From a virus: a stretch of DNA of 64,000 nucleotides. The position numbers and the translations under genes are program-made. The stretch is from the IMG/VR virus record IMGVR_UViG_3300016667_000143; one strand, written 5' to 3'. Below the pieces are notes generated by a model that saw only the letters and a program-made list of their open reading frames with translations, was not told the DNA's origin and did not search any database. Below, one piece after another: positions 4,478 through 63,870 of this stretch. Numbering within the stretch: the first letter of the stretch is position 1; every line of letters begins with the position of its first letter.

Positions 4478-4874
4478 AATCCTCCTTAGTACCGGAGAAG
4501 ATGCTGTCCCGACAACCCTTCCTGCCTCTGCCGAGGAAAAGGCGCGTCAATTACCTCAACCTTCGACCTACCACATTCTCTGCGCCCTTCCGGAGATTGA
4601 GTCGGAGTATGAGAGCGGTCTTCTGAAGGCCGATAAGACCATTTACTTCGAAGAAGTGATGTCGCCCGTGCTGTTTGTCGTGGCGATGGGGCCTGATTGC
4701 TACAAGGATAAAGCCCGGTTCCCGAGCGGTCCTTCATGCAAGAAAGGTGATTTTGTTCTTGTCCGGCCAAACACCGGAACCAGAATCAAAATTCATGGCA
4801 GAGAGTTCCGGATCATCAATGATGATTCCGTGGAAGCTGTCGTGCAAGACCCCCGTGGCATTTCGAGGAGTTAA
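4464..4874 (+). CDS. groES: GroES/Cpn10-like co-chaperonin
   Basis: LPQPSTYHILC..., VVAMGPDCY, CKKGDFVLVRPNTG, FRIINDDSVEAVV follow the Cpn10 pattern. Confidence 0.8.
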   Translation: MMMSEILLSTGEDAVPTTLPASAEEKARQLPQPSTYHILCALPEIESEYESGLLKADKTIYFEEVMSPVLFVVAMGPDCYKDKARFPSGPSCKKGDFVLVRPNTGTRIKIHGREFRIINDDSVEAVVQDPRGISRS

Positions 4875-32200: not shown

Positions 32201-33412
32201 TTGGTAAATACTGCTCCGGAAATCATCCGCGAGTTTTATGGACAGGAATCCGAGCCGGTTGGGCCAAAACCGGGCCAAATCGGGCCTAGTATTCTGGAGC
32301 CAATCGGGCCAGAAGAATTTATCCCGTTGACCGGAACGCCTACGGAACAAACAATTGGCCCGTTCCTGCCCCGCGAGCCTATAGCTTCTGTAGATGAGTC
32401 TCCTGCCATTGATAGGGATGTTATTTCACCGGGGCTGGACCTGAACTCCGTGGCATCAGCCGCTAAAGAGGCAGGATATTCAGAACCCGAGATGCAAGAT
32501 TTGTTAAAAGAGCTTGGTGAAACCAAATCTACGACCATCCCCGGAGAAACCGGCGAACTGACCGTGGATCAAGCCGGGCAGGTATCTGTATCTGAGCCTG
32601 TAACCCAAGAGGTGCCACCCGTTCCAGTTGAACGTGAGGTGATCACCCCCGGCTTAGACCTTAATTCTGTGGCAGATGCCGCTCAAAAAGCAGGGTATAC
32701 AGAAGCTGAAACCCAAGAATTGTTATCCGGTACAGAAGTTAAACCTGTGGATAACATGGGGATAACCGATGTAAACGATACCTTGCAAGGCGCTGCGACC
32801 AATGACACGCTAACCGGTGTTGCCGAAGATACATTAACTGGCGCTAACGATACGCTGACCGGCGGCGATAACATCGAGAGGATTGATGTGGCTGGCGGCA
32901 CGGCTGTCGATGCCGATCAAGGTGAGGCTGAAGCCGGGGCAGGTTTAGGGGCGGGAGTTGGTGTCAGCGATTACGATACCCTTGCGGGCGCTACCGGCAA
33001 CGACACGGTAGAAACCACCCCGTATACACCGGGCGAGGATGCAAAAGACTTTACGCCTCCTTATACACCCGGTGAAGACGCGCAAGATTTTACCCCTCCC
33101 TATACCCCCGGGGAGGATGCTAATGAGTTTCCGGCAAACCAGCCGGATGCAGCGTGGCCTAATTGGCTGAAATCGTTGTTCACCAACTTAATTTCCAGCG
33201 GCACTTCCCCGGCTGCGGCACGAAACTTTGCCTCTGGGTTCTTGGGCACTGGAACTAGCACTCAGACACCGGCAGGGATACAATCGCTAGTAGGGCCGAC
33301 AACTCAGCCGTGGTATTCAGAAATGCCCGAGTTTGACATCACCAAAGCATTCTCGCCCACCTTATACGCCTTGCGTAAAGAAGAGCCTGACACTCAGGCA
33401 GAAGAGGAATAA
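29237..33412 (+). CDS. putative ejection / internal virion protein with internal repeats
   Basis: Gly/Ala-rich membrane-inserting-like N-terminus, coiled coil, several repeat families, acidic C-terminus. Confidence 0.65.
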   Translation: MPEAAVFLLVEVGAAEAIGAGIAGLLGAGTITPAVATAIGAGAISAGMALGRDENLSNVLKSAVVNGVSVYAGSAVAGSVASSVSSSLAREGVDSAVANAMGRVLGGAAGGAIRSGTSALLTNKDPIAALLKGGITGGLAAGVTASIDAALKDAPGFGEPANAVEAGLQRAVKTALANTALSGGDLSKVGPAVINSFISGAGKYSSQMKDDTTTVKTANNEYQAALLAYDNNIGEQNKLVSKYNAEIAPLNAQYSEIMGLKAQYDSAALGARDWAGWAAANGYRPQEDENGNWSGNYIREKPDAKWHWETNQIWVDDGQGGSNLETRTYKQYDESPYEFAPGPGQLAAEANRLAGIINPKVEEYTTAHRNLFGGTYTETETTYYKNPETGEDQWFLADDGSVYRMPAGEQEVERTVVGSLKPVTDRLDVLKGSIPGIETAITTKKTNLEEAVASFNQSELLNASLLQPTLNNLITAKQLYAQEFGLDPSQDTLQSYVDSGDILKAVTKDVTDHSNEALAKSKGFEDYADFKDAGNLSAADYYAKEEGWEDGAEKLEASVNGYTSPDEWDTFVTNQTTAKNAGFDNYADYQAAGDTTSADFYAQRSGWTNAAQKSEAAQAGFTMPSSWAAYVDNNTVDRQEVLDAFKTIPGSFIPSEADIEQLIGNKPDTNLGQQIQQYVKDKQDPIKEIFKSFEYEPSIEEINYFLNNPAETPEQTKQQIANLVDDKTVTKEEAKAAFEAAGYPVTEDLLNQFVGKTNEGTMLNTIIPEYISNHPVKTTPPVEQAAAPQPAAPTQPTTAAPVAQTGTEPVDWTAYNELLAPKAAPERTTPATIAQMRDPSFQATDAEKTAWDQFIQKKIADQKEAFEFQYGRTLTDAQAKTRVEAWLRQNEATPEWPNTLNRVTQELATAKQVETPEAPAAAVVPGAGQNLVVEPSGNVQVVDTVAGGNAVVEQPPVINKEVISPALDAGAVAAVAAEAGFTKEEVKDLVNTAPEIIREFYGQESEPVGPKPGQIGPSILEPIGPEEFIPLTGTPTEQTIGPFLPREPIASVDESPAIDRDVISPGLDLNSVASAAKEAGYSEPEMQDLLKELGETKSTTIPGETGELTVDQAGQVSVSEPVTQEVPPVPVEREVITPGLDLNSVADAAQKAGYTEAETQELLSGTEVKPVDNMGITDVNDTLQGAATNDTLTGVAEDTLTGANDTLTGGDNIERIDVAGGTAVDADQGEAEAGAGLGAGVGVSDYDTLAGATGNDTVETTPYTPGEDAKDFTPPYTPGEDAQDFTPPYTPGEDANEFPANQPDAAWPNWLKSLFTNLISSGTSPAAARNFASGFLGTGTSTQTPAGIQSLVGPTTQPWYSEMPEFDITKAFSPTLYALRKEEPDTQAEEE
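33020..33133 (+). repeat. three 39-bp coding repeats (PYTPGEDAxDFTP)
   Basis: In-frame tandem units differing mainly at synonymous sites. Confidence 0.85.
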
Positions 33413-37245: not shown

Positions 37246-40200
37246 ATGGCGATCCGCGCTCAGTTATTTGACGGAACGATCCTTGAGTTTCCGGATGACA
37301 CCGATCAAACTGTCATTGACCGTGTGGCGCAAGAAGAAACTTTAGCGCGGAAACCGGCTCCTCAGCCTGTACCACCTTCCACTAAACGCACCGCAGGCGA
37401 AGCTGCTGTTGACGTTGGTGCCGGTGTTTTAACCGGGTTAGGTGGTTTAGCTCAGGCTCCCGGTCAACTTCTTCGTTTAGTTCCCGGCTTATCCGGGGTG
37501 GGCGAGGCTCTGGCCAAGCCCGGAGAATGGATTTCGGAAGCTGGTGAGAACCTTAAATCTGAAGGTTTAAAAGCCAGAGAAGCATTACGTTCTCAGGCCA
37601 TCTCTGAAGCCGAGAAAGACGGCATCATTTCGTCTTTTGTCACGGCGATCACATCCACTCTTAAAGATCCTGCCCTTATCACATCGTTTGTGGCAGAGCA
37701 GGTTCCTTTATTACTTGGCCCTGCGGGTGCTGCGAAGGTTACACAACTTCTTGGCCGTGGCGCTGTAGAAGCTGCTGGCCGTGGTTTAACTGGAGCTGCG
37801 GCAGAAGAAGCTGCCAAGGTTGCCGCTCAACAAGTTGGCCAACGGGCTACCCGGGCTGCTATCGGTACGGGCGTGGGTATGCAGGCTGCTGATGTCAGCG
37901 GCGATGCTTATCAGGATGCCTATAAGAGAGCCATTGCCCAAGGTATGACTGAGCCGGAAGCCCGGGATGCTGCGTTAAACGCCGCACGCATTGCCGGTGC
38001 TGGTGCTGGTGCGGCCAGTCTGGCAACCGCAGGTTTAATGAGCAAGATTGGCGGTTCTGCCATTGAACGCAAGCTGGCCGGTGTTCCCGGATTTACCCGC
38101 CCGGTCAGTGCATTTGGTGAAGCCACATCCGAGGGCTTAGAAGAATCTGCGGGCCAGTTGTTCAAGAATATCGGTCTTCGGCAGGTTGATCCTAATCAGT
38201 CGCTCACAGAAGGTGTGGGCGCTGCCGCAGGTCTTGGTGCGTTAGGCGGCGGGTTCTTTGGAACCATCCTTGGTGGCAAACCTCCCGAGCCTTTAGCTGC
38301 TGGGCAACGAGAAGGCGAAACCCTTGGCCAAGCTGCTACCCGTTTAAGCCGTGAGCTGGCTCATTTAGAGCAACAGATCAACCCGCCTGCTCCTGAAAAA
38401 ACTGTCGCTTCTGTCCAAGATTTGGTGGCGATGGCCAGCCAGCCTCAAGGATGGACTAGGCTCCTTCAGTATGAAGATCAGCTTAAACAGATGCCCGCCA
38501 GTCCTGAACGGGATGAGGCGATGCGTGTGGCCAAGGAACTGCGTGGCCGGTTAAGCGCAGAGGAAGTATCTCGCAAAACTCCGGAGGGTGCTGAGTATCC
38601 TCATGGTCAGGAGCTTCCTGTCGAACCTACACCTGAGTCCCCCTACCCCACCTTCACGCAGTTGGTGGAGATGGTTAACCGTAGCCCCAATGCGGAACAG
38701 GCTCTTGCAGACCTGAATGAATACGCAGATTCCATCCGGAACCTTCCGGCTTCTGCTGCGCGTGCAGCGCATTTAAAGGAAGTGGCGGAACTTCGGAACA
38801 TCATCAAAACCGAGGCTGCTGCCCGGGTTCCAAAAGGTCCGGAAAAGTTCATCCTCAAGGGCGCGGATCTGGCCAATATCGGCATCACGCGCTCAGATGT
38901 GTTGCACCATCAGCTTGCCGGGAAGAATTTAACCGATCCCGAACAGGCAGATTATGTTGTTCGCCAGCTCGAAAACGCTTTAACTCGCGCCAATCTCACG
39001 CAGGCAAAGTTTGATGCCATTTCCGGCTTGCTGGAAACCGTGGATCAAATCTTAAAAGATGTTCAAGGGAGTGGGTTCTATGCTCAACGAACTGTCACCG
39101 AACCAAGTGGAGCGGGCGCTGGAGTGGTTAGTGGAGAGGTCGGACCATCCGCCCCCAAAGGATCTACAGAGCCTAAACGAACTGGAGTGGTTCCTCCTAC
39201 GGCGTATGTTGGACCACCTGTATCTGGAGAAGAAGGCCAGCCCCCTTCAGTAGTTCCGGAAGGCGAACCTGCTCCGTATGTGGAAGGCCCAGAGCCGGGG
39301 CTAGAGGAAGTGGGTCGTCCCATCTCGGATGAGATTGCTCAACTGGAAGCCGAGGTTCGTCAAACCGAGAAACTGGGATTAAAGCCCAACCTGTTCAGCA
39401 TGCTGATCGGGAAGGTTGATCGCAATGATGTCAAAGACATCGGGACCAGTGCCGGGAAGATTGAGCTTCAGTATCGTCCGTTAGTTAAACGCGAAGGCCT
39501 TGGCAAGTCCGTTAGCGAGTTTGTTAATGACGGCACTCTCGATGATTTTCTGCCGTATGAGATGCGCCATGATGCGCCCAACTTCAATGTTCAGGATTCC
39601 ACTGAATACATCAAAGACAAGCTGCGCCAGCGTATACACATCAGCTATGAAACCGAGGAGATGCTTCATAAGCTGAACCTCGCCATCACGGACCTGATGC
39701 CGTTACTGGAAATTGAGGAAATTGAAAATGAACGCCAACGCGCCATCCGGGAAATCAACCTCAAGATCACGCAAGAACTCGATGAGCAAAGAGAGCGCGA
39801 TCAAGAAGCTGAGATCGCTGCCGCCGAAAAACCGGCTGGAGGTGTTGCAAGAACTGCTGGCCAGAAAAGGCAACCAAAACGTGCCCGTTTAACCTCTGAG
39901 CCTTTCACAATTGATGTTGAAGCTCGGGTAATCTCGGATGTTATTGAACGTAATCTTGAGGCGCTGCCTGACAAACAAATTGCCAAGCTCGAAACGGCGT
40001 ATAAGTTAGTCGCTAAAGAAGACGGCAAGTTCACGCCAGAGTTTATTGAGCGCGTTAAACAAGACATTGCTCAACTGGAAGCCGAGGGCACTAAGGCCAT
40101 CACCGAATCAATTCGGGGAGTGATTGGACCTTTGCGGGCCAAGGTCAATGCCGGAGTTAAACAACTAGGCAGAGAGCCGATCACCATCGACGTCGAAGCT

Positions 40201-43200
40201 CGCGTGGTGGAAGAAACTATTGCCCCGCAAGTCGCTGCTTTGCCCGCGCCGGATGTTGTCACCTTAGAGAATCATTACGGCGTTAAATCAGGCTCTAAAG
40301 AGTTCTTGCAAAAGGTTAAAGAGGATGTTGTTCTCTTTGCCACTAAAGGTGCCAATGCGGTTGCATCTGCCATCCGCTCAATCATTAAGACTATCCACGC
40401 CGGTGTTCTGTCGATTTCCCTGATCTTTAACCCAATCAACATTAACCCGCCCGAGGCTTATGCGGTTGTGCCCAAGGCCACGCCGCAGGTTGTGGCTCCT
40501 GATGAAACGCCGACGCAACAGTTTGTTATCGACTTAGCCAAGGTTCCGTCCAATGTTCAGGGCATGTCTGATGCGGCCCAGCAGGCTTATCAAACCCTTA
40601 TTCCGTCTTTAAACGGAAAAATCGGCGACAAGTTAATTGTTATCGCTGACAAACCCGGTGGCCGGGTGTTTGTCTTCACCGCAGATGGGACATTGGTTGC
40701 TCAAAACAAAGCACTGTTCGGGGCGGCAAAGGGTGATCTCTACAAGGGTAATGTTGATGTCCCGGCAAATCGCGTCACACCCGCCGGGTTGTTTGGTTTA
40801 AAACTGGTCGATGCTGCAAAAGGCGGAGCGGCCAAGAAGACCGCTGGTGAGTATGAGTTTGGGAAAGTTTTTGCCTTAAACGATCCCGAAGCTGTCATCA
40901 CCATCATGCACTCTGTCTGGCTAAAAGAAGCAGATGCTCCTCAACGTAAAGCTGCGTTGGCCAATCAGGACGCCGAAGATTCCCGGTATTCATTTGGTTG
41001 CATCAATGTAGACAAAGACACCTTCAAGTTTTTGTTAGACAACTATCAGGCTCAGATGGACGGGGCCAAGTTGTTTGTTGTGCCGGATAACCAAGCTCAA
41101 GTTAAAGAGTTTTTATCCGGGCAGATTGCTCAGAATGTTGGCGGAATTAAACCCGGAGAAGGTCCGGATAGGCTTGTGCGCGAGGCGGTGGAAAAGAAAA
41201 GCCTGCGTGAAGTTGCCAAGAATGTTTCGGAGGGCAAGTTCCGGGAACTTGAGAAGCGGGCTAAGACCCCTTCTGAACCAAAGCCGGAAGTGCCACAGGC
41301 TGAGTCTCCCACTGTCACCGCTCTTAAAGCTCAGAAAAAGCTCAAGGCAGATCAACTCCAAGGAATCTTGAAGAAGATTCTGGCCCAGTACGGCCTGAAG
41401 GGTGTGGAGTTAAACCTTGAAGAAGGGATGCAAGATGAAGGTTCCTACAGCGGGCAACTCATCAAGCTGGCCTTAGACAATCTTGATCCTGTCCGGGTTC
41501 TGCGCCATGAATCCATTCATGCCTTAAAGGAACTTGGCTTCTTTACCCCGCAACAATGGAAGGTGTTGACTGACCGGGCCAACAAGGAATGGATCGACAC
41601 CTACCTCAAGAACCGGAATATTGATGGCAAACCGTTAGAGCCGGGGCAGCAATCCCGTTATGACGCCTATATGGATCTCTATAAGGGAGATGCCGAGGCA
41701 GTCATGGAGGAAGCCATCGCTGATGCCTTCGGATCTTTCCGGCAAACCAAACCTCCTGCGGGGATGATGAAAGCCCTGATGGAGCGGTTAAGCAACCTGT
41801 TCAAAGCTATTAAACAAGCCATGAACATGGGCGGCTATGAAACCGCAGAGGATGTGTTTGGCGCAATTGAGAAGGGCAAGCTGAAGGGCGCTGCCCCTGT
41901 CTCTAATGCGGAAGTTAAAGCTAGTTTGCGTAATGCGCGTGTGTTTTATACAGATCGCTACATCAAGCCCGTAGTGGTTGATAACAAAACCGAAGGTTGG
42001 GATCTGATCAATCCTGTGACATTAAAAAATGGCACGCGCTTAGACGGATTTTCAGACGTTGCACAAACCACCTTTAAAGGATATGAACAAGGTCGTGTTC
42101 GCATCACGCAGCGCGTTAATACTGTGGATCCTGAAGATATTGTCTTTAGCAAAGATAGCAACCGTACAGCAGAAGCTCTAAAAAAAGCTCTTCTTGATCT
42201 CCGGCAGCAAAAAACAGATGAAGCCATACCAGTCAAGGCCAGCTTAAGAAATATCCAAACTGATTCTGCCAACTTTAAGAAGTGGTCTAGCGATGCACCA
42301 ATTATTGTAGATACCACGGATTACAAAGGTGGTCCTGCTGTATTTAAAGCATTCCACGGCACTACGCACAACGACATCACCGTGTTTGACACGGGGCGAG
42401 GATCTAAAGAAGGGGCTTTAGGTGCCGGTCCATATTTGTCTACCAGCGTTGACGATGTAAACGCGAACTATGCTGGGGTTGGACCTGATCTTACGGTGCG
42501 TATTGGCCGCGAAGTGGATCAAATATCCGACGCTTTTTATGATGACAACTTTTATGCCGGTGAAGTTTTAGAAGATTATTTTTCAGACAATGATTTAGAC
42601 ATTGAAATCACGGATGAAAACTTTGAAGAATTAAAAAATCAGTATAACGATGAAGCCATTCAACATGCTGCGACCAAAGCCGTAAAAGGCAAATCGGAAG
42701 GCTTGGTGGTTCCGGCGTATGTCCGTTTGCTGAAGCCGTTTGATATGCGCGGCAATCAAGGAACATACTTCACGATTGAATCAGAATACGATGCAGAAGG
42801 TGAGCCAATTGGCGAACCAACTGGCTCCGGCATGGATTTGATTAAAGCCATTGGATCCGTGGCTGATTCATACAACGCTGACGCTTCAGATCTTCAAAAT
42901 TACATTTTTGAAAATCAGGAAGTCACAGCCCAAGAAGTTTTTGATCGTGCCTCCAAATCCGTTGGCGATCTTTATGATGACAACGGAGAACTCATTAGTT
43001 CCGGGCAGTTTATCCAAGATGTTGCCAAAGAAATGGGCTTCGATGGCCTAATACAAAAGGCTGATGATTATTTCGGTGCCAACAGAGTTGGACCTTTTGG
43101 AATTAAACAAAAAGGCATGACCGGGGTATATAAAAACACCCTGCACATCATGCCGTTTTCTTCGGATCAAATTAAATCTTCTATTGGAAACATTGGCACG

Positions 43201-46200
43201 TTTGGTCAGGAAAAACCCACCGCCGAACAAGCTGCGCGTCTTGGCATGACGCAAGCGCAAGCTGAAAAAGCTCAAGCCAAAGGCGATATTCGTTTAAGCA
43301 TCCGCGCTCCTAAAACTCCGGAGTTCAAAACATTCTTCGGTCAGTCCAAGATTGTTGATAAAGATGGTGAACCCCGTGTGATGTACCACGGCACTGCCCG
43401 TGACATTACCGAGTTCCGTCCTCAACAGGCTGGCGCTATCTTTGTATCGCCAAATCCGGAAATCTCTGCCGGGTATGCCCAACAATCAGCAAGCTGGATG
43501 GCAGATCATGCTGACGAGTTTTTGACACCAGAGCAGCTTAAACAAACCCTTAAGGACGCTAAAGCTCTCCTCAAGGATAACGGCTACACCGCCAAACAGA
43601 TCACTGCGCTTGAGGCGGATAACAGCATCTATAAAACGGATGAGTACCGTGAAGCCGTGGGCAAGTTCATGCCGTCCGGGCCGAACATCATCCCGGTGTT
43701 TGTCAGGGCAGAGAACCCGTTTGACTACGAAGATGATAAAACCCGCAAGTTGGTGCTTCGGCAAGTTAATCAACAACGCGAAACCTCGTTTAAAGACTCT
43801 GACTTCCTTAAGACTAACAACTGGATTGCCATTGAAGATCCGGTGACGCAACAGGTTCTCCGGAACATGGGCTTTGATAGCTTTTATGTCCAAGAGAACG
43901 GCGTTAAGAATCTTGCGGTCTACAGCCCCTTGCAGATTAAATCTGCCATTGGGAATGAAGGTGGTTATTCTTTAACTAACCCGGATATTCGTAAGAGTTT
44001 GCGGGCTAAATGGTCTGATGACCGTATCAACAAATTAGTCCGTGCTTACGGGTTTAATCTTGGCGGGCGCGAAAAAGACACGAAAGCATTTGCTGCGGCT
44101 ATTAAACCCGAGGATTTTCTCAGGGCCACTGCAACCAAGGAAGAACGTCAGCGTATTGCTGAAGAAACTAAACCGTTAGACCCGGAAATGCTTGCTCAAG
44201 AAGATCAAGAGTTATATCTTGAGATTGAACCCACTGAAGAAGACGGGGTTTATCAAATTAAAAACCATGAAGGCCGTCATCGCATGACGGCTTTGATGAA
44301 TGCCGGATACGACACTCCCATCCCGGTAACATTGCGGATCAATCGTAGAAATGCTGAAACTGAACAAGAGGTATATCTCAAACCTCAAAAGTACCGTCAG
44401 GGTAATCGATTAGTGACTGCGCCTAGAGGCATTTTCGTGTCTCAAATGGTCCCAATTAGTCATGCTAGTAAAGCAGAATTGCGTGACACATTTGGCGGTG
44501 AGGCTGATATTAAATTCAGTCTTCGCACGCTCCCGTCCGTCAGCACTGATGTGTCTGATCGCGTCACACAGACGGTCATTCCCCGTATCCGCCCCGGCTT
44601 TATAGAGCGGATTCAGGACGCCTTTACTCCCACGCAATACTCCAAGTTCCGCGCTCAGTTCATTAATCGATTTGATGTGATGGCCCGCAATGACCGTGAG
44701 GCCGCACGACAAATTAAACTGATGGGCGGCACAGAGCAGCTTGCGGATGTTAAATCTGAATCTGCTGCGCTCTATGCGGATCTGGGGGGTGGTTTAGCTG
44801 CTGCTGCCTTCGGCGTGCATGACCGGCGCGGTGGTATCCCTAAATACAAGAAACGTTACCTTGTTGAAAAAGATTTCCAGCAACTTGGAGAGTATGACAA
44901 CAAGGCTGATGCAGACCGTGCTGCTCAACAAATTGGCGCACAGGTTTATGAGATTGGACACACCGTCATCACTAACGAAGGCGATGTCGAAGGTTTAATC
45001 AAGATCTATGCGCCGCTGATGGCTTATGAGCGTCCCACTGACGGCTCACCGGATGTGTGGAGTTTGTATCAGTTCTGGGCTGATGTTAAACGCGCCTCTA
45101 AATACCTTCTGAATCCGCAGACTGGTAAGTATGAAGAAAAGCTATTCGAACAAGCTGACATTGATCGAGCCGCTGAGATTGAACGAGAGTTCCCGGAGTT
45201 TGTTGAGATCCACAAGAAATGGATTAAATATAACAACGGTCTTGTAGACTTCATGCGTGACACGGGCGTGATCAGCGCAGAAGGTGCCGCTGAAATGAAG
45301 AGCCACGGCGACTACTTCCCGTTCTATCGGCATCTTGGCGAAGATGACATTCAGGGGCCTAAGCTCTTTTCCTCCATCTCCGGAGTTAAAGGTCCTAGAG
45401 CTGCGACCGGCAGTGAAGCGCCTGTCACGGACTTCTTTGAAACCATTGTCCGGAACACTCAGTCTGCCATTCAGGCTGGGATCAAGAACATTGCTGCCCG
45501 TCGCGCCACGGATCAGGCGATGAGGATCGGGCAAGTTGCACGGATGCCTAGTGTCACCACTGGCCCGGCTGCTTACCGGGTCTTGGAGAATGGCAAAGAA
45601 GTTTATTACGAAGCAAACGATCTTATGTTTGTGGAGGCTTTAAAAGCGTTAAATCAGGCAGACATCCCCGGCCTTGGATTTATTGCAAAGCCCGCTCAGT
45701 TACTTCGCACCTTGGTCACTAAAGATCCTGCATTCATGTTTGCCAACCTGATGCGGGACTCCATGTCCGCATGGCAAACCTCCGGGGTCAAGATGACTCC
45801 AATTGCTGCCACCATGAAGCAGTTCGCCACGGCATTGCGTGGAACATCTCCGGAGCTAGACGCTCTTTACAAGGCAGGTATCTTGGGAGGGTATGACTAC
45901 TCCCACGGCGTTGAACAAAGCGCCAAGAGCCTTGAAGCCGAGATGAAAAAGGAGATGAAGGTTCGTAGCACCATTCAGAAACTCACTTCCCCCATCACCT
46001 CCCTCTGGGGTGCGTTAGAGAAAGGCTCTGCTGCCTCTGATGCTGCCACCCGGATGGAGATCTACAAGAAGGTGATGGAGCAGACCGGCAACGAAGCTGA
46101 GGCTTTGTGGCAATCACTGGAGGTGATGAACTTTAACCGCAAGGGTCGCTCCCCCATCATCAGGATTTTGACGGCTGCTGTGCCGTTTATGAACGCCCGG

Positions 46201-47205
46201 ATTCAGGGTTTAGATGTTCTCTACCGTACTGGCATCAGGCCTGCACTGGCCAGTGACACCACCGATGCAGAACGCGAACGCTTTAAAACATTCTGGACTC
46301 GCGGCATGGTGATGATGGGACTGGCCACGATGTATTGGGCTATGACCCATGATGATGATGATTACAAAAAGCAGGAGCAGGAAACCCGGGATAACTATTG
46401 GTTGATCCCTTCTCTGGGCATTAAGATTCCCATCGCATTCGAGGTGGGCTTCATGTTCAAGGTTGTACCTGAGCGGATCATGCAATACGCATTCGGCTCA
46501 GACACCGGAGAAGATTTCCTTCGTTCAATGGGCAGACAGCTTCACAGCACCTTCGCCGTGGGATTCCCGCAGATCATCAATCCGATGTTGGAGGTGGGTG
46601 TAAATCACTCCTTCTTTACCGGGCGCCCGATCATCGGCCAAGGTTTAGAGGATGTTGCGCCTGAATATCAGGTTGGCCCCAACACCTCAAGGATGTCTGC
46701 TGCCATTGGTCAGAGCCTCGGAATCTCCCCGATGAAGCTGGATCATTTAATCCAAGGGTACAGCGGCACGATGGGGATGTACGCCGTGGATCTGGTCGAT
46801 TCATTTTTAGGAATGAACGCTCAGTCACCCAAGGCGTCTAAACGATTTGAGCAGATGCCGGTGATCCGCCGGTTCCTGTTAGATCCGGAAGCGCGTGGCA
46901 CGGTCACTGGCTACTATGAGTTAAAGCACAGTGTCGATGAGGCGGTACGCACCACGAACTTCTTGGAGCGTTCTCAGGACTTTGAAAACTATGGGAAGTT
47001 TGCCCGGGAAAATATCGGGCTGTTGGCTACCCGGGATTACATCAATGATCTTGAGAAGACCATGAAGCAGTTCCGGGAGATGAAGAACACCATCCGGATC
47101 TCTAGCATGGATGCGGATGCTAAACGGGATGCGCTTGTGAGTATTGGCAAGATGGAGCAACAGCTCACTGCCAACATCCAATATCTCAAGAAGCAGGCAA
47201 AATAA
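37246..47205 (+). CDS. large polyvalent protein (3319 aa): L,D-transpeptidase-like, HExxH zincin, two ART-PolyVal-like, ParB-like and LPD38-like regions
   Basis: MHSVW...RYSFGCINV (40909-41010); LRHESIHAL (41500-41526); FHGTT and MYHGT domains each ending QIKS.IGN; HEGRHRMTAL (44266-44295); FNRKG...PFMNARIQGLD...YWLIP C-terminal block. Confidence 0.8.
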   Translation: MAIRAQLFDGTILEFPDDTDQTVIDRVAQEETLARKPAPQPVPPSTKRTAGEAAVDVGAGVLTGLGGLAQAPGQLLRLVPGLSGVGEALAKPGEWISEAGENLKSEGLKAREALRSQAISEAEKDGIISSFVTAITSTLKDPALITSFVAEQVPLLLGPAGAAKVTQLLGRGAVEAAGRGLTGAAAEEAAKVAAQQVGQRATRAAIGTGVGMQAADVSGDAYQDAYKRAIAQGMTEPEARDAALNAARIAGAGAGAASLATAGLMSKIGGSAIERKLAGVPGFTRPVSAFGEATSEGLEESAGQLFKNIGLRQVDPNQSLTEGVGAAAGLGALGGGFFGTILGGKPPEPLAAGQREGETLGQAATRLSRELAHLEQQINPPAPEKTVASVQDLVAMASQPQGWTRLLQYEDQLKQMPASPERDEAMRVAKELRGRLSAEEVSRKTPEGAEYPHGQELPVEPTPESPYPTFTQLVEMVNRSPNAEQALADLNEYADSIRNLPASAARAAHLKEVAELRNIIKTEAAARVPKGPEKFILKGADLANIGITRSDVLHHQLAGKNLTDPEQADYVVRQLENALTRANLTQAKFDAISGLLETVDQILKDVQGSGFYAQRTVTEPSGAGAGVVSGEVGPSAPKGSTEPKRTGVVPPTAYVGPPVSGEEGQPPSVVPEGEPAPYVEGPEPGLEEVGRPISDEIAQLEAEVRQTEKLGLKPNLFSMLIGKVDRNDVKDIGTSAGKIELQYRPLVKREGLGKSVSEFVNDGTLDDFLPYEMRHDAPNFNVQDSTEYIKDKLRQRIHISYETEEMLHKLNLAITDLMPLLEIEEIENERQRAIREINLKITQELDEQRERDQEAEIAAAEKPAGGVARTAGQKRQPKRARLTSEPFTIDVEARVISDVIERNLEALPDKQIAKLETAYKLVAKEDGKFTPEFIERVKQDIAQLEAEGTKAITESIRGVIGPLRAKVNAGVKQLGREPITIDVEARVVEETIAPQVAALPAPDVVTLENHYGVKSGSKEFLQKVKEDVVLFATKGANAVASAIRSIIKTIHAGVLSISLIFNPININPPEAYAVVPKATPQVVAPDETPTQQFVIDLAKVPSNVQGMSDAAQQAYQTLIPSLNGKIGDKLIVIADKPGGRVFVFTADGTLVAQNKALFGAAKGDLYKGNVDVPANRVTPAGLFGLKLVDAAKGGAAKKTAGEYEFGKVFALNDPEAVITIMHSVWLKEADAPQRKAALANQDAEDSRYSFGCINVDKDTFKFLLDNYQAQMDGAKLFVVPDNQAQVKEFLSGQIAQNVGGIKPGEGPDRLVREAVEKKSLREVAKNVSEGKFRELEKRAKTPSEPKPEVPQAESPTVTALKAQKKLKADQLQGILKKILAQYGLKGVELNLEEGMQDEGSYSGQLIKLALDNLDPVRVLRHESIHALKELGFFTPQQWKVLTDRANKEWIDTYLKNRNIDGKPLEPGQQSRYDAYMDLYKGDAEAVMEEAIADAFGSFRQTKPPAGMMKALMERLSNLFKAIKQAMNMGGYETAEDVFGAIEKGKLKGAAPVSNAEVKASLRNARVFYTDRYIKPVVVDNKTEGWDLINPVTLKNGTRLDGFSDVAQTTFKGYEQGRVRITQRVNTVDPEDIVFSKDSNRTAEALKKALLDLRQQKTDEAIPVKASLRNIQTDSANFKKWSSDAPIIVDTTDYKGGPAVFKAFHGTTHNDITVFDTGRGSKEGALGAGPYLSTSVDDVNANYAGVGPDLTVRIGREVDQISDAFYDDNFYAGEVLEDYFSDNDLDIEITDENFEELKNQYNDEAIQHAATKAVKGKSEGLVVPAYVRLLKPFDMRGNQGTYFTIESEYDAEGEPIGEPTGSGMDLIKAIGSVADSYNADASDLQNYIFENQEVTAQEVFDRASKSVGDLYDDNGELISSGQFIQDVAKEMGFDGLIQKADDYFGANRVGPFGIKQKGMTGVYKNTLHIMPFSSDQIKSSIGNIGTFGQEKPTAEQAARLGMTQAQAEKAQAKGDIRLSIRAPKTPEFKTFFGQSKIVDKDGEPRVMYHGTARDITEFRPQQAGAIFVSPNPEISAGYAQQSASWMADHADEFLTPEQLKQTLKDAKALLKDNGYTAKQITALEADNSIYKTDEYREAVGKFMPSGPNIIPVFVRAENPFDYEDDKTRKLVLRQVNQQRETSFKDSDFLKTNNWIAIEDPVTQQVLRNMGFDSFYVQENGVKNLAVYSPLQIKSAIGNEGGYSLTNPDIRKSLRAKWSDDRINKLVRAYGFNLGGREKDTKAFAAAIKPEDFLRATATKEERQRIAEETKPLDPEMLAQEDQELYLEIEPTEEDGVYQIKNHEGRHRMTALMNAGYDTPIPVTLRINRRNAETEQEVYLKPQKYRQGNRLVTAPRGIFVSQMVPISHASKAELRDTFGGEADIKFSLRTLPSVSTDVSDRVTQTVIPRIRPGFIERIQDAFTPTQYSKFRAQFINRFDVMARNDREAARQIKLMGGTEQLADVKSESAALYADLGGGLAAAAFGVHDRRGGIPKYKKRYLVEKDFQQLGEYDNKADADRAAQQIGAQVYEIGHTVITNEGDVEGLIKIYAPLMAYERPTDGSPDVWSLYQFWADVKRASKYLLNPQTGKYEEKLFEQADIDRAAEIEREFPEFVEIHKKWIKYNNGLVDFMRDTGVISAEGAAEMKSHGDYFPFYRHLGEDDIQGPKLFSSISGVKGPRAATGSEAPVTDFFETIVRNTQSAIQAGIKNIAARRATDQAMRIGQVARMPSVTTGPAAYRVLENGKEVYYEANDLMFVEALKALNQADIPGLGFIAKPAQLLRTLVTKDPAFMFANLMRDSMSAWQTSGVKMTPIAATMKQFATALRGTSPELDALYKAGILGGYDYSHGVEQSAKSLEAEMKKEMKVRSTIQKLTSPITSLWGALEKGSAASDAATRMEIYKKVMEQTGNEAEALWQSLEVMNFNRKGRSPIIRILTAAVPFMNARIQGLDVLYRTGIRPALASDTTDAERERFKTFWTRGMVMMGLATMYWAMTHDDDDYKKQEQETRDNYWLIPSLGIKIPIAFEVGFMFKVVPERIMQYAFGSDTGEDFLRSMGRQLHSTFAVGFPQIINPMLEVGVNHSFFTGRPIIGQGLEDVAPEYQVGPNTSRMSAAIGQSLGISPMKLDHLIQGYSGTMGMYAVDLVDSFLGMNAQSPKASKRFEQMPVIRRFLLDPEARGTVTGYYELKHSVDEAVRTTNFLERSQDFENYGKFARENIGLLATRDYINDLEKTMKQFREMKNTIRISSMDADAKRDALVSIGKMEQQLTANIQYLKKQAK

Positions 47206-50821: not shown

Positions 50822-50906
50822 TGGTGCGACAGGCCGGACTCGAACCGGCACGCCTTGCGGCGGCGGATTTTAAATCCGCTACGGCTACCTATTACGTCAC
50901 TGTCGC
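50822..50906 (-). tRNA. trnL: tRNA-Leu (anticodon UAA) with encoded CCA
   Basis: Reverse complement GCGACAG...GCGGA-TTTAAAA-TCCGC, long variable arm CCGC-AAG-GCG, T-loop GGTTCGAGTCC, acceptor CTGTCGC-A-CCA. Confidence 0.93.
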
Positions 50907-55325: not shown

Positions 55326-55391
55326 GCGGAAGCTACGACGCCGAATCTAAAGCGTCTGAGGTTGACCCTCACCGAGAAACAGAAGAGGGGC

Positions 55392-55421
55392 TTGACACCG
55401 CTTAGGCCAGACGTATAGGAT
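55392..55421 (+). promoter_or_regulatory. sigma70-type promoter of the replication operon
   Basis: TTGACA 55392-97, 18-bp spacer, TAGGAT 55416-21. Confidence 0.65.
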
Positions 55422-55427
55422 GAAGTT

Positions 55428-55526
55428 GTTGGCGTAGGAACCGACAGCAGAAGCCGCTTACTCATGCTCCCGCCCGTCGAAAGATGGGTTCCTACCGGGG
55501 GCAGCAGTAAGCGGCTTTTTTGTTTT
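55428..55526 (+). ncRNA. structured leader / C4- or CI-like antisense RNA ending in a terminator
   Basis: 12-bp stem 55451-62/55506-17, GAAA-capped inner hairpin 55472-89, U-tract, alternative 9-nt pairing 55434-42/55487-95. Confidence 0.55.
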
Positions 55527-55848
55527 CTACGTCAGTTAAACGGGGCCATAACCCAGCCCTCGATGCGGTGGACGCGACCTATTCGGATAAACGTGGCGAA
55601 TCGCGTGGTACTTAAGTAGCCTTGGCGAACGGGACCAGATGCGCGGGGATCGTAAGATCTAGCCTAGATAAACGAGAGCGTCAGGCGAGTAGCCTTTTCC
55701 GGGGAGAAATCCCCGGGTGAGGTTTATTGGTAGTGTTTTAAGGTATTCGGGATGTCATAAGATTCTTTGGACCTCCCGTGGTTCCCGGGGACATCTCAGT
55801 GGTGTCATGAAGTCCCCGGGGTGTGTTTTGGTTTAAAAGCAATCTGCC

Positions 55849-58999: not shown

Positions 59000-59073
59000 G
59001 CCATCACCAGATACATGAGGGCATAGATCAGTGCCGCCATCACGGCGGCGCGGACATAATCGAACGGACTCAT
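58993..59073 (-). CDS. 26-aa single-pass membrane peptide (not in ORF track)
   Basis: MSPFDYVRAAVMAALIYALMYLVMAW*; coupled to both neighbours. Confidence 0.5.
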   Translation of the reverse strand: MSPFDYVRAAVMAALIYALMYLVMAW

Positions 59074-59444
59074 CACGCCCCCCGATAATGAATGTTCCGG
59101 ACCGCTTGAATGTCATAGGCTCCGCCGCCCACGGCGAAGCCCTGCGCCTCAGCGTAAGCCCGGGCGTCATGCTCCGATTTAAATAAACCGTAGACCTCGG
59201 CAGGGTCGCGTTCAAAATACACGGTCACAATCCAAACCCCCATATCGTCAAGGGACCGAATCGGCAATTGATTCTCGACCGCCCGGAGCATATCCGGGGC
59301 GGCGGCGTCCCAATCAATCTGATATTCGCCCTGCACCTTCAGCGTCAATTGATAGGCAATGTCAGCGGCGGCGCGGTGGTCCTGCGCCACGGTTCGGGAA
59401 GTTGAAAGCTCATCGAGACACCGAGCAAGTTTCGCAATGTGCAT
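59073..59444 (-). CDS. hypothetical protein
   Basis: CAGGAG RBS. Confidence 0.65.
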   Translation of the reverse strand: MHIAKLARCLDELSTSRTVAQDHRAAADIAYQLTLKVQGEYQIDWDAAAPDMLRAVENQLPIRSLDDMGVWIVTVYFERDPAEVYGLFKSEHDARAYAEAQGFAVGGGAYDIQAVRNIHYRGA

Positions 59445-59458
59445 TTAAATCACTCCTG

Positions 59459-59479
59459 AAAAAAGGGGGCAAAGCCCCC
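59459..59479 (-). terminator. intrinsic terminator after the vWA gene
   Basis: Minus strand GGGGGC-TTT-GCCCCC-TTTTTT. Confidence 0.7.
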
Positions 59480-59484
59480 GGGGG

Positions 59485-61203
59485 TTAGGCGGCAATCTTG
59501 ATCTGGCGAAGCGATGCAGTGGCGAGTGCGTCGAGGTCTTGCACCCGGATGTTGCGGGGATAGACCGCCGAGACATCAAGCTGCATGCCGAGGCCAATCG
59601 TCACAATCCCGAGGTTTTCTCCGGCCTGCACCTGATTGCGGCTGAGGGATACGCTCCCGTTTCCGTCAGTGATGGAAAAGCAAACCTTCCGGGCCTCGGG
59701 CCGGGCGAGCAGCATATCGTGCGCGACTCGAAGGGCGGCGTGGTCGTTCGTATTGTCGTCGCTCCGCAGGCGGGACAGAATCTCCCGTGCCTTAACAGTC
59801 GGAGTGCCCCACGGGATCGTCACCGAGGCGGTATCGCCGAACGTCACCACGGCGACCGCGACACCTGCCCGAGTGAGCACCCGGTGAAGTAAGTCGCAAG
59901 TCGAGAGCGCCGCCCGGATCCGGTTCGGGCGCATAAACATTGACCCCGAAATATCTAGGACGATGACAACAGCGGAATCAATCCCCTCAACGTCACGGCG
60001 TTGTTTAAACAGTCGGTCGGTGGTGCCGACCCGTGCCAGTGCGTTGACGTTGACGGACCCGGCGCGGCGGTTGAGGGTGAACAGGGTCGAGCCGGAATCT
60101 TCAAACAGTCGGCGGACCTCATGCTCCAGTCGCGGGGACGACACCGGGTCAACCGAGATTGCGGACGCCTTGCCGAGGTGAGCACCGGGGCGGCGAGTCT
60201 CAGTCCGGGCGGACCAAGACCCGCCACCGGATGCACCCTCGGGAGTGTCGATGCGCGGCTCGACCTCCCGTGCCTGTTCGTCCCCGCTCATGGGGCGAGC
60301 GGGTCCGGGCTGCGCCTCGCCCTCACCTTGTCCGTTGCCCGGGGCGTTACCCTGCCCCTCGCCCTCGCCTTGCCCGTCACCGGGTTGCTGCCCCTCACCG
60401 TCCCCGGGTTGCGCCTCGCCCTGTCCGTCACCTTCGCCTTGCCCGTCCCCGGGTTGGCCATCGTCGCCCGGCTCGCCCTGCCCGGGTTCCTGCCCCTGCC
60501 CGTCTCCGGGTTGATTGCCCGGCTCTTGCCCGGGTTCCTGCCCCGGATCCTGTGCGGAGTCTTGCTGCGGGAGCGCCTGCAATTGCGATAGCACCCACCT
60601 TGCAACTTCGAGGGTGTCGGTCGAAGATTGGCACCCGTCGATGCGGCGCGAGGCCTCCTCGAAGATAGGGGCAAGCCCGGCGGCGAGCGGGACAGTCACC
60701 CCGGGATATGCTCTCGCAGTCACGGCGAGGGCGAACGGATACAGTGCCGGGTCCGTCCAGTCCTGCACCTCAGCCCGGGCGCGGTCGGTCATCTCGCGCA
60801 GCAGCCCGGTGAGCAGCGACTCGATGTTGCCGAGCAGCCCGGAGCGGATCGCGGTCCGCTCGATCCATGCGTCCTCGATTGCGTTGTGCAGCGTCCGCAA
60901 AATCGAGGGTTCGTCACGGCGAGCGTTGGCGCTGAAGTCGGTATACCGGCGGTGCAAGAGTTCGTGGACAACGAAGCCCAGATAACGCAGGACGTCCGCC
61001 CGTTTAATCAGTGCGTCATCTCGGACGGATGACAGATACAGGTCGCCCCCGTCATTGATAGCGGCGGTGCTGATCTCGACCCACGAGATAGACACGGGGC
61101 GCAGTGTCAGCCCCGAACAAACATGGTGCGCGAAGGCCTCAACACCTTTCCTGAGTTCGTGTCCCCGGATGGCGGGGCGGTTGAGCAGGATATTTGCGTT
61201 CAT
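59485..61203 (-). CDS. CobT-like protein: N-terminal HExxH metallopeptidase, P/G/Q/E-rich linker, C-terminal vWA domain
   Basis: VVHELLHRRYTDF...HNAIEDAWIE; MIDAS IVLDISGSM; FSITDG. Confidence 0.85.
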   Translation of the reverse strand: MNANILLNRPAIRGHELRKGVEAFAHHVCSGLTLRPVSISWVEISTAAINDGGDLYLSSVRDDALIKRADVLRYLGFVVHELLHRRYTDFSANARRDEPSILRTLHNAIEDAWIERTAIRSGLLGNIESLLTGLLREMTDRARAEVQDWTDPALYPFALAVTARAYPGVTVPLAAGLAPIFEEASRRIDGCQSSTDTLEVARWVLSQLQALPQQDSAQDPGQEPGQEPGNQPGDGQGQEPGQGEPGDDGQPGDGQGEGDGQGEAQPGDGEGQQPGDGQGEGEGQGNAPGNGQGEGEAQPGPARPMSGDEQAREVEPRIDTPEGASGGGSWSARTETRRPGAHLGKASAISVDPVSSPRLEHEVRRLFEDSGSTLFTLNRRAGSVNVNALARVGTTDRLFKQRRDVEGIDSAVVIVLDISGSMFMRPNRIRAALSTCDLLHRVLTRAGVAVAVVTFGDTASVTIPWGTPTVKAREILSRLRSDDNTNDHAALRVAHDMLLARPEARKVCFSITDGNGSVSLSRNQVQAGENLGIVTIGLGMQLDVSAVYPRNIRVQDLDALATASLRQIKIAA

Positions 61204-61213
61204 GGTTTAAACC

Positions 61214-62635
61214 TCACAGATGACGGTCAATAAAAGCGGGGTCAATGCAGGCCTCGAAAATTCCTTGCAAAGCGAGCGCCGATTCCTGCGGCTGTCGCGC
61301 TGCGATTGCCGAATTCCACGCCTCGCGTACTGGCATCATGCTCAGGGCGCGGACAAAAGCCACAACGGAGCGGATACTCGGGGCGTCGATAATGTCGCCC
61401 GTCGAAACCTTCGATCTGGCCATTTGCACCGCGCGGAGAATATGTTCGGCGAGAGCCGGGGCGCAGCCAGTGTGCCGGGTCACGGCCTCGACCTCGACCG
61501 CGAGGGGCAGAAAATCGAAGGGGACGATACGCGCGAAGCGATCCGCCAGTGCGCTATTCATCTGGCGCGTCCCGCTATACCTGCCGGAGCTATCGCCATT
61601 CGTCAGGGTGTTGTCGGCGGCGAAGATCAGCACCCCGGGGGCGCGCCGCCATACTGAACCGCCGATTGTGACTGCGGCGTTCGGTTCGAGCAGCCCATTG
61701 AGGATCGCAAGCTCGCCCGGGTCTGCGTTGGTGATTTCGTCGAGCAAGATCACCGTGCCGGGGGAGGTAAAGGCCCGGAGAAAAGGCCCGGGGACGAACT
61801 CGGTCGCTCCATTATTTAAACCGACCGCGCCGATAATTTCCTCGGCCGTGCTGTATTTGTGGAAGTTGATCCGGACATAAGAGCGCCCGGTACGGGCGGC
61901 GAACTGTCGGACAGTCTCGCTCTTGCCCGTGCCCTTTTCCCCGCCGAGCCAGAGATTTTCCCCGGTCGATTGACTCAGCAGCAGGTGCCGGAGAATCTCG
62001 GCCTGCCAGATAAACATCGGGTCCACCGACTCAGCGACAGGCGATGCGTAGCAGTGGACCGGCACGGTCCGTCCCTTGACGTCCCGAATGTCCACCCCGA
62101 AAACCGAGAGCGCGTCAGACTCGCCCGGCAGCGCCTCGGCGATTGCCAATACCTCGGCCTCCCGCCCCTCAGCGCGGACCTGAGTCTCGAAGGGTTTAAA
62201 TGCCTCCCGCACGGCGGCTGCGACCTGACCCGCCACGGCGGCGGGGTCGATTGCGGGGCGCTCTGCGGCGCGGCGCATGCTCAGGTCGAGCGACTGGACC
62301 GATGCGGCGATGCCGGACACTTGCCCGGCGAGGCCTTGCACCTCGCCCGTGAGCCGGTCGTCGAGATGAGTGATGCTTGCGGCCAGAGCATCGCGCACTG
62401 TGCCGAGTTTGCGGTGGGCGTCGATTTGCTCGTCGGTGATGGCGTTGATAGTGCTGCGGATCTGCGCCAGTTCGGCGGTGTCAGTCGAGGCGGCGGGAGC
62501 GGGTCCGAGCGGAGCGGCGGACAACTTGCCCGACAGGGACGCCACTGCGGCGGCTTTGCCGGGGAAGGGCTGCCCGGGGTATTGGGCCTGCCAAGTTGCT
62601 TGCACCGTGGCGAGGGGGGTATTCATGCTGACCAT
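61214..62635 (-). CDS. MoxR/CobS/CbbQ-like AAA+ ATPase with N-terminal coiled coil
   Basis: LWLGGEKGTGKS, VILLDEI, IFAADNT, MNSALADRF, SIRS. Confidence 0.9.
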   Translation of the reverse strand: MVSMNTPLATVQATWQAQYPGQPFPGKAAAVASLSGKLSAAPLGPAPAASTDTAELAQIRSTINAITDEQIDAHRKLGTVRDALAASITHLDDRLTGEVQGLAGQVSGIAASVQSLDLSMRRAAERPAIDPAAVAGQVAAAVREAFKPFETQVRAEGREAEVLAIAEALPGESDALSVFGVDIRDVKGRTVPVHCYASPVAESVDPMFIWQAEILRHLLLSQSTGENLWLGGEKGTGKSETVRQFAARTGRSYVRINFHKYSTAEEIIGAVGLNNGATEFVPGPFLRAFTSPGTVILLDEITNADPGELAILNGLLEPNAAVTIGGSVWRRAPGVLIFAADNTLTNGDSSGRYSGTRQMNSALADRFARIVPFDFLPLAVEVEAVTRHTGCAPALAEHILRAVQMARSKVSTGDIIDAPSIRSVVAFVRALSMMPVREAWNSAIAARQPQESALALQGIFEACIDPAFIDRHL

Positions 62636-62637
62636 GA

Positions 62638-63207
62638 TTAGGCCTCCTGAGTCGTTTCGAGGTTGAAGGTGTCACCGCACGGGCACTGCGGCATGCCTTT
62701 GTCGGCCCATTTTTGCGTCAGGCGGATCGTGTATCCGCAGGTCGGGCACAGCCCCTTGAGCAGTCGCGTTGCGGCTTTCGGGCGGTCCGCCAAGCTCAGG
62801 GCGGCATGCGGATAAGCGCCGAGCGCTGCGGCGATGCCCTGCAATTTGCTGCCAAGATTGATACCGCACCCGGGGACGTCCCGAGGTTTGTCGGGGCGCA
62901 AGTCCAGAGCAGCGTAGACCGCGCTCTTATGGGAGGCGTTGCCCGTGATCGCTTCGACTAGTTGCCGGAGCAGCACGGCGAGTACCGCCCCCGGATCGCT
63001 CAGTGTTGGGCTGATGAGAATCTCGACCGTCGAATCGGCCGAGTCGCCCGGGCGGAAGGTTTCGCCGAGCGCCCCGGAGCGGCGGTACGTGGAGGGAAAC
63101 CCGCAGGCGATGCGGATTGATGCCGGGAGCATGCCCCCGGCGGTGGTGATAAGGGGAGTCAGTTCCCCGGCTGCGTCAGTAAGCCAAGCCTCTCGTGTCG
63201 CGTACAT
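62638..63207 (-). CDS. SprT-like protein with C-terminal Zn ribbon and a degenerate catalytic motif
   Basis: EILISPTLSDP..VLAVLLRQLVEA; TRLLKGLCPTCGYTIRLTQKWADKGMPQCPCG; GGAGG RBS before ATG 63207. Confidence 0.6.
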   Translation of the reverse strand: MYATREAWLTDAAGELTPLITTAGGMLPASIRIACGFPSTYRRSGALGETFRPGDSADSTVEILISPTLSDPGAVLAVLLRQLVEAITGNASHKSAVYAALDLRPDKPRDVPGCGINLGSKLQGIAAALGAYPHAALSLADRPKAATRLLKGLCPTCGYTIRLTQKWADKGMPQCPCGDTFNLETTQEA

Positions 63208-63228: not shown

Positions 63229-63408
63229 TTATCGCCACTGCCCATAAGCGTTGACTTGGTGCGTCGTTGGCAATCGGTCGAGCGCCTTATTAAGCACTGC
63301 ATACGCGACTGCGTGACTGTTTTTGCCGTTCGGCATCGTGTATGCAGGCTGCGCGAGAATGCCTTCGGCCCACGTTATTTCAGCGTTGCTAAATTCTTTG
63401 TTGGTCAT
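63229..63408 (-). CDS. first gene of the early operon, hypothetical (start revised to ATG 63408)
   Basis: MTNKEFSNAEITWAEGILAQ...; GGGGA RBS. Confidence 0.55.
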   Translation of the reverse strand: MTNKEFSNAEITWAEGILAQPAYTMPNGKNSHAVAYAVLNKALDRLPTTHQVNAYGQWR

Positions 63409-63467: not shown

Positions 63468-63496
63468 ATTTAATCACAACTGCTAGTGCTGTGCAA
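63468..63496 (-). promoter_or_regulatory. sigma70-type early promoter
   Basis: Minus strand TTGCAC, 17-bp spacer, TG-n-TTAAAT. Confidence 0.55.
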
Positions 63497-63605
63497 GTCG
63501 ATAGTGCAAGTGCATCTCATTAGGGGTTGATCTGGGGAGGTTTCCCGCGACTAGCACGGTTTCCGGATTCGGCAAAACCGGCCATTTCACTTTCCGGAAA
63601 ACCCC

Positions 63606-63806
63606 TGTGGATAACCTGTGGAAAGCGAAATTTTTAGGGTGCCAATGGGGTGGTGGCTTAAACCGAAAAAATCGCTCTGAGGCCCGTTTAAGCGGTTCTA
63701 GCGGCATGTATGGATATACAGTGGTTGGATATACAGCTAGGGAAAACCCCTATTGCCTTTTACTTATCCCCAACTTATCCACAGGCTGTGGATAACCTGT
63801 GGACAA
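63606..63806. promoter_or_regulatory. cluster of DnaA boxes (three perfect, three imperfect)
   Basis: TGTGGATAA 63606-14 and 63787-95, TTATCCACA 63775-83; near matches 63617-25, 63764-72, 63798-806. Confidence 0.7.
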
Positions 63807-63870
63807 CCCGCTCGGGGAGGTGTATTCTGCGAACAGTCTAATAACCTGCCCTGATTGATAGGGGAATGCT

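Follow-up and report, generated by a model that had tools for sequence, protein, structure and literature searches.

Sites for the host replication initiator DnaA are crowded into the 460-bp spacer that separates the leftward early genes of an uncultured phage from terS, its small terminase subunit gene. This locus, which we call the hub, raises the question of what host DnaA could be doing in front of a packaging gene. The stretch of DNA analyzed here, referred to as the window, comprises the 64,000 nt of IMG/VR virus record IMGVR_UViG_3300016667_000143 from a freshwater metagenome, and the phage is a member of a large uncultured freshwater family with 401 TerL loci in IMG/VR. Phage DNA with DnaA boxes is known from P1 and lambda. 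Boxes were also described in T5 (bioRxiv 10.1101/866236), and they appear in origin predictions in genome papers (PMC11512268). Literature searches turned up neither this phage family nor any terminase promoter with DnaA boxes in it. The results described below indicate that host DnaA is a probable regulator of packaging-gene expression, of phage replication, or of both. Under any reading, the conserved cis-element shows an apparent dependence of the family on the host initiator.

Gene content around the hub

The window is a phage genome, as seen from its genes for a large terminase, a portal and a polyvalent virion protein of 3319 aa (37246-47205, plus strand). The latter carries ART-PolyVal (ADP-ribosyltransferase) and LPD38 domains. 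Also encoded are a Sak annealing protein, a PD-(D/E)XK nuclease, RusA, a Toprim/DnaB-type primase-helicase, and a MoxR ATPase with its VWA partner. A tRNA-Leu with the anticodon TAA (50822-50906, minus strand) is the sole tRNA in the window. Upstream of the primase-helicase operon (55385-55530, plus strand), there is a TTGACA-type promoter and, behind it, a structured RNA some 100 nt in length, with a long hairpin and a T-run at its end. This RNA matched no Rfam family at the gathering score and could be a small RNA or a regulatory leader. Contig L229, from another assembly, is identical to the window over 5363 bp and adds 757 bp between the window's end and its start, which makes it probable that the genome is circular, with a length of about 64.76 kb.

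On the early side, the first gene (63229-63408, minus strand, as called on the identical contig L229) reads leftwards from the hub and encodes 59 aa with no Pfam or PHROG hit. The second (62638-63207, minus strand, 189 aa, phrog_6361) was considered as a Rep initiator and rejected, because its homologues are SprT-like according to their Pfam hits. The SprT-like, MoxR and VWA genes form a conserved trio. The region that holds them (59000-63000) has a GC content of 0.61-0.65, compared with about 0.50 elsewhere in the genome and at the homologous loci of relatives.

On the other side, the gene starting at 63871 (plus strand) is cut by the window end at position 64000. The whole gene, present on L229, encodes 207 aa, and its full-length homologues match small-terminase families (phrog_51, phrog_1595), which confirms its provisional naming as terS. 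The order from the hub onwards is terS, a 223-nt spacer, a 70-aa gene, a gene whose product is a LexA-type DNA-binding domain and nothing else, and terL. This LexA-type protein (76-83 aa; window 149-400, plus strand) is kept between terS and terL in relatives; as a speculation, it might bind the CTGTATA-type motifs of the hub. Outside the window, the 223-nt spacer that follows terS (L229:2491-2713) is non-coding and conserved across the family. It contains C-rich repeats of the CCCACCCCCC type, a CCCCCGGGGG palindrome followed by TATATA and, ahead of the 70-aa gene, a second AATGCGAACA site, and is a candidate pac or cos site combined with a candidate second late promoter.

None of the window ORFs of at least 450 aa matches a polymerase, and Pfam and PHROG gave no initiator when the window's long proteins and most of its early genes were scanned. 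An earlier, sequence-only reading of this DNA had described a phage with a primase-helicase and without a recognizable polymerase or initiator; the primase-helicase is real, and the ORF, Pfam and PHROG scans agree with the rest. PolA, PolB and PolIII-alpha are absent from the complete or near-complete family genomes G001, G004, G005 and G006, and DnaA domain IV is absent from the relatives G001-G003. The named or cultured cousins HTVC023P, HTVC027P, 023Pt_psg01 and DSL-LC04 (51-60% TerL identity) all carry PolA and have no perfect box. Since one clade is thereby compared with another, the association of boxes with polymerase loss amounts to only one evolutionary event. As a general rule this link is ruled out by Pag-Yong1, which has neither PolA nor boxes, with not a single TTNTCCACA. 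In the family itself, the boxes and the missing polymerase would fit a reliance on host replication.

DnaA boxes of the hub and their conservation

Three perfect TTATCCACA boxes, all inside 190 bp, are found in the hub at 63606 (minus strand), 63775 (plus) and 63787 (minus), and two more lie outside it at 26683 and 32746 (both minus). The window total of five compares with 0.47 expected, and 0 of 100 dinucleotide shuffles got to five. Next to the perfect boxes, those at 63764 (TTATCCCCA) and 63798 (TTGTCCACA) have one mismatch and that at 63617 (CTTTCCACA) has two. The starts within the pairs 63606/63617, 63764/63775 and 63787/63798 are exactly 11 bp apart, leaving 2-bp gaps. Block shuffles gave five boxes within 210 bp in 0 of 3000 cases, and tight pairs that include at least one perfect box were seen four times against an expectation of 0.0003 per genome.

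The arrangement agrees largely with what the sequence-only reading had reported. It had placed the three perfect boxes correctly, and the 11-bp spacing of the pairs, the opposite orientation of the last two pairs and the repeat preceding both clusters (GGAAAACCCCT, at 63596 and 63741) were all found again; the genome-wide 9-mer count that it had suggested confirmed the excess. As for its three near-matches, those at 63764 and 63798 hold as one-mismatch boxes, but the one at 63617 is weaker than implied.

A further tight pair (32746-32765, minus strand) lies inside a gene for a 1391-aa structural protein. It has the same form as the pair at 63764-63783 (TTATCCCCA, a 2-bp gap, then TTATCCACA/TTATCCACAGG) and a chance expectation of about 0.0003. 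No DNA match to it was found in four complete relatives, and no protein relatives were found for that segment of the gene.

Read from the early side, the hub begins with two GTGCAAGT repeats 13 bp apart (63491-63511), which on the early strand read ACTTGCAC and include TTGCAC. They are a candidate -35 element or operator of a presumed leftward early promoter, and repeats of the ACTTGCACTATC type occur at the equivalent place in the relatives L004, L149 and L176. The distal sub-array follows (63596-63625, minus strand), with GGAAAACCCCT abutting the perfect box at 63606-63614 and then CTTTCCACA at 63617-63625. Counterparts of this sub-array were found 150-220 bp from the proximal one in L014, L156, L165, L167, L176, L187 and L205. 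In L205, a 16-bp palindrome with the core GTCTTATAGAAGAC is repeated four or five times between the two sub-arrays (4660-4790), and the repeats look like iterons or operators for a dimeric protein.

Between the two sub-arrays of the window, a MAFFT alignment of 14 family spacers revealed a conserved non-coding block (63626-63705). On the minus strand it reads CTAG..TTAAAC..AGCGATTTTTT..CCCC(A/T)T, a G-rich stretch flanked by A/T tracts, and its conserved elements are ATTTAAAC, GCGATTTT and ACCCCTT. Rfam gave no match anywhere in the hub, this block included. Next to it are two TGGATATACAG repeats 15 bp apart (63711-63736, plus strand), which form the least stable duplex of the hub. By nearest-neighbor calculation the least stable 25-mer (63709-63733), beside the proximal array, is at the 99th percentile of the window, and the AT content reaches a maximum of 0.62 over 40 bp. 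A palindrome, TAGGG-N5-CCCTA (63738-63752), contains the second GGAAAACCCCT; similar AGGGTAAACCCT palindromes precede the boxes in L187, L193 and L209. The proximal array itself (63764-63806) is an inverted repeat made of two converging two-box arrays with 2-bp gaps, namely TTATCCCCA (plus), TTATCCACA (plus), GGC, TTATCCACA (minus) and TTGTCCACA (minus), so that the opposed boxes are 3 bp apart. An 18-mer with a box pair is present twice at a distance of 181 bp, which is the distance between the two sub-arrays.

Conservation was assessed with two anchors. Among MoxR-anchored relatives (50-67% identity), the homologous spacer carries 4-8 boxes in all 14 loci that cover it. The second anchor was the large terminase, for which the best 80 of the 401 loci were taken (81-89% identity) and the 34 with at least 2.3 kb of upstream DNA were scored. 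At least three boxes were present in 33 of these 34, 1.1-2.1 kb upstream of terL and thus just before terS. Conservation in relatives, a check that had been called for earlier, is therefore evident with both anchors. The complete relative G001 (63,973 bp) has only two perfect boxes, and both are in the hub spacer. Across 36 unique arrays we counted 3-8 boxes per array. The spacing of neighbors has two peaks, with 45 cases at 11-12 bp and 17 at 21 bp. The variants used are the known functional ones (TTATCCACA, 92; TTGTCCACA, 43; TTATGCACA, 16; TTATCAACA, 10). Box number, order and orientation change between clades while the 9-mers remain DnaA boxes, indicating selection on the boxes as binding sites and not on a block of sequence. 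Family conservation and the spectrum of variants strongly support the prediction that these are true DnaA sites under selection, and binding of host DnaA at the hub is very likely.

The exact 29-mer core of the proximal array also occurs in three unrelated viral contigs (L001:2402-2433, L002:42-105 and L003:133-230) with GC contents of 0.39-0.57 and other gene neighbors, each time within a larger DnaA-box array. A blastn search of the hub region against a phage collection gave no match. Tandem perfect boxes (TTATCCACANNTTATCCACA) are present in at least 119 other viral contigs of IMG/VR, which suggests that hijacking of DnaA by phages may be much more common than the textbook cases. The boxes are also a usable marker, as the usage of TTATCCACA and TTGTCCACA constrains the host.

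The terS promoter and possible roles of DnaA

A promoter scan placed the terS promoter at 63800-63835 (plus strand), with a -35 element TGGACA (63800-63805), a 17-nt spacer, a -10 element TATTCT (63823-63828) and GCGAACA (63829-63835). The -35 element is inside the DnaA box at 63798-63806. When 39 unique sequences were anchored on GCGAAC, an xAxAAT hexamer was found immediately 5' of it, ending in T in 37 of the 39, and several relatives have a TTGAC-type -35 hexamer 17 nt further upstream. By this conservation, terS is predicted to have a conserved sigma-70 promoter whose -10 hexamer abuts the invariant GCGAAC. The conserved GTTCGCA had been considered as a regulator site or LexA-type box; this was rejected, since the anchored alignment identifies it as the sequence right after the -10 hexamer (GCGAAC on the terS strand). 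The strict motif is present in 26 unique sequences. Among these, the box closest to the promoter lies on the -10 in 12 and on the spacer or the -35 in 10, giving core-promoter overlap in 22; in the remaining four it lies 0-7 nt upstream of the -35. Where the -10 is overlapped, TGTGGATAA plus T itself makes GATAAT. A second GCGAACA site with a preceding -10-like hexamer, 3' of terS, has no boxes in L229 and the relatives checked. If that site is a promoter, DnaA control would be specific to terS.

Our preferred, though tentative, reading is that the hub serves as a DnaA-occupied operator that gates terS. DnaA would bind the terS-proximal boxes inside the sigma-70 promoter core, and its occupancy would spread cooperatively along the boxes spaced by 2-3 bp and perhaps bridge to the distal sub-array about 180 bp away. 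Bound in this way, it would keep RNA polymerase off the terS promoter. Repression would be lifted once replicating phage genomes, with 5-8 strong sites each, outnumber free DnaA, and terS, hence packaging, would turn on only after genome copies have accumulated. The boxes exceed chance by far, the array recurs in the homologous spacer of every MoxR-anchored locus that covers it (14 of 14) and of nearly every TerL-anchored locus scored (33 of 34), and the promoter that the nearest box overlaps is defined by conservation. The geometry of the array is variable but the promoter overlap is constant, which suits an operator that works by occupancy better than an unwinding module for which geometry is critical. 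The box-free GCGAACA after terS points in the same direction. However, all of this is read from sequence, and origins are a much more frequent place of DnaA action than promoters. Gating of terS does not account for the conserved block between the sub-arrays, for the distal sub-array about 100 bp from any promoter-like element, or for the absence of boxes from the PolA-bearing cousins. In the four relatives with the nearest box just upstream of the -35, DnaA could activate instead of repress, and at oriC and dnaA regions, too, it is normal for an origin to overlap a promoter.

An origin of phage replication that depends on host DnaA is nearly as likely. DnaA oligomers on the two sub-arrays would open the intervening spacer, the phage primase-helicase would load itself and host Pol III would copy the DNA, with divergent transcription of the early genes and terS helping the opening. 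This would account for the absent initiator and polymerase, the bipartite array and the conserved block, which an operator does not. The window's early genes contain no recognized initiator and the family genomes searched lack PolA, PolB, PolIII-alpha or DnaA domain IV, and the four PolA-bearing cousins have no perfect boxes. Located between promoters that diverge, the bipartite array extends over about 200 bp around a conserved block with A/T tracts. The DNA of the hub that should melt most easily adjoins the proximal sub-array, and the 2-bp gaps and opposed arrays recall the low-affinity arrays of E. coli oriC (PMC4451416). Against an origin, no DnaA-trios were found in the required orientation at any tandem pair (criteria of PMC8287927), the AT content is only 0.62 over 40 bp, there is no GC-skew signal, and the orientation of boxes relative to the conserved block varies among relatives. 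Moreover, no Rep-type gene is adjacent, the neighbor being SprT-like, and the link with polymerase loss is a single clade contrast from which Pag-Yong1, without both PolA and boxes, deviates. The origin proposed by the sequence-only reading thus gains from the missing polymerase and initiator and from the bipartite array around the block, but it lacks the DnaA-trios expected of an oriC-type unwinding module, and a Rep gene was not found. That reading had ranked a tie to transcription last of its three proposed functions; its DnaA sites are supported, and the boxes in the terS promoter core favor this last function.

Its remaining proposal, a DNA-only decoy similar to datA, appears improbable. 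With rising genome copy number, the boxes would titrate DnaA, stop new rounds of host replication and free Pol III and nucleotides for the polymerase-less phage. Several high-affinity boxes per genome, conserved across a family that depends on host polymerase, would suit this purpose, and E. coli is an established case of chromosomal boxes that titrate DnaA (PMC12371093). But a decoy could sit anywhere and the array always abuts the terS promoter, so that its tracking of a promoter is left unexplained; in addition, the hub has no datA-type IHF consensus site, and 3-8 boxes per genome are a modest number. By analogy with the box pairs in the injection stop of T5 (bioRxiv 10.1101/866236), boxes near the end of the virion DNA might be bound by membrane-associated DnaA, so that the genome is held or paused during entry. 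Were packaging to begin at the conserved element 3' of terS, the hub would be about 1 kb from one genome end. We consider this very unlikely, as the contigs are circular assemblies in which virion ends are not placed, the hub has no terminal-repeat context, and the T5 model is itself a proposal. The lowest probability of all goes to the repeats being a pac or cos site bound by TerS and not by DnaA, which the sequence-only reading had named as a refuting outcome. Packaging sites are often beside or inside terS, and the repeats lie directly upstream of this gene. However, they agree with the DnaA consensus exactly or through mismatches typical of known DnaA boxes, unrelated viral contigs carry the 29-mer core of the array next to other genes, and the element downstream of terS, with its C-rich repeats, CCCCCGGGGG palindrome and TATATA, is the better pac or cos candidate.

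Gating of terS and an origin are compatible with each other, as at bacterial dnaA-oriC regions, and the same hub may double as an origin. A full dual role, in which DnaA fires replication of a polymerase-less lytic phage here and represses terS until amplified genomes titrate it, seems rather unlikely. If true, the phage would count its own genome copies via the host initiator and have a replication-coupled late switch without a phage-encoded regulator. If DnaA gates terS, this would be a simple viral way to time packaging by genome copy number; if the hub is an origin, it would explain how a lytic phage with a helicase-primase but without a polymerase or initiator starts replication.

Comparison with known DnaA-site systems

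The origin oriR of P1 combines five RepA iterons and a neighboring repA gene with DnaA boxes on either side of a core of about 250 bp. The hub resembles it in that its sub-arrays, 181 bp apart (150-220 bp in relatives), flank a core, and P1 is also a phage that uses host polymerase. Of possible iterons, the hub of the window has only two short TGGATATACAG repeats, against the four or five palindrome copies of L205. Unlike oriR, it has no Rep gene; its neighbors are the 59-aa orphan and the SprT-like, MoxR and VWA genes, and the scanned early genes gave no Rep family hit.

In E. coli oriC, the low-affinity arrays have 2-bp gaps and one orientation per array, and the two arrays are opposed (PMC4451416). 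The hub also shows 2-bp gaps, a single orientation within each array, opposed arrays and strong sites about 180-200 bp apart that bracket a region. It differs from oriC in the absence of a 13-mer unwinding element, a DnaA-trio run and an IHF site, and in boxes that are mostly high-affinity, not weak, and change orientation among relatives. The boxes adjoining the least stable 25-mer point the wrong way relative to E. coli R1. The criteria for an oriC-type basal unwinding system (BUS) comprise one or two boxes, with up to two mismatches in the better one, a 0-16 bp spacer and at least three DnaA-trios (NAN) on the correct side (PMC8287927). Suitable boxes are present in all three 11-bp pairs, but at most two consecutive NAN units lie beside any pair in all frames read, and what flanks each proximal pair is the other pair and not a run of trios. 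The GC skew tracks the direction of the genes and locates no origin.

The hub resembles datA and DARS, which are clusters of 3-5 DnaA boxes outside origins and have DnaA itself as their target. In datA an IHF site is essential (PMC4585315), whereas none of the six WATCAANNNNTTR matches in the window, a consensus that may not be that of the host, falls in the hub. In the DARS core, box II faces box I across a 5-bp gap and has box III as its tandem partner (PMC6868365). The opposed boxes of the hub have tandem partners as well, but their gap is 3 bp, and the arrangement is not that of DARS.

T5-like phages have eight paired DnaA boxes with 3-bp gaps, conserved in the injection-stop region (iss), which was argued not to be an origin (bioRxiv 10.1101/866236). 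Paired boxes with 2-3-bp gaps in a large non-coding region, conserved family-wide, are common to both. The T5 pairs are in inverted repeats with a fixed 52-bp spacer in the terminal repeat, whereas those of the hub overlap a promoter between divergent operons.

DnaA-regulated promoters, such as those of E. coli dnaA and nrdAB and lambda pR, have boxes within or beside a sigma-70 core promoter. We know of no described counterpart for relief of DnaA repression by genome amplification. Compared with these promoters, the hub differs in belonging to a lytic-type phage of a large uncultured family, in its location at a packaging gene, and in its 4-8 tight boxes with a second sub-array. Like them, it has a recognizable promoter with a box within the core (22 of 26 sequences) or 0-7 nt upstream of it (4 of 26).
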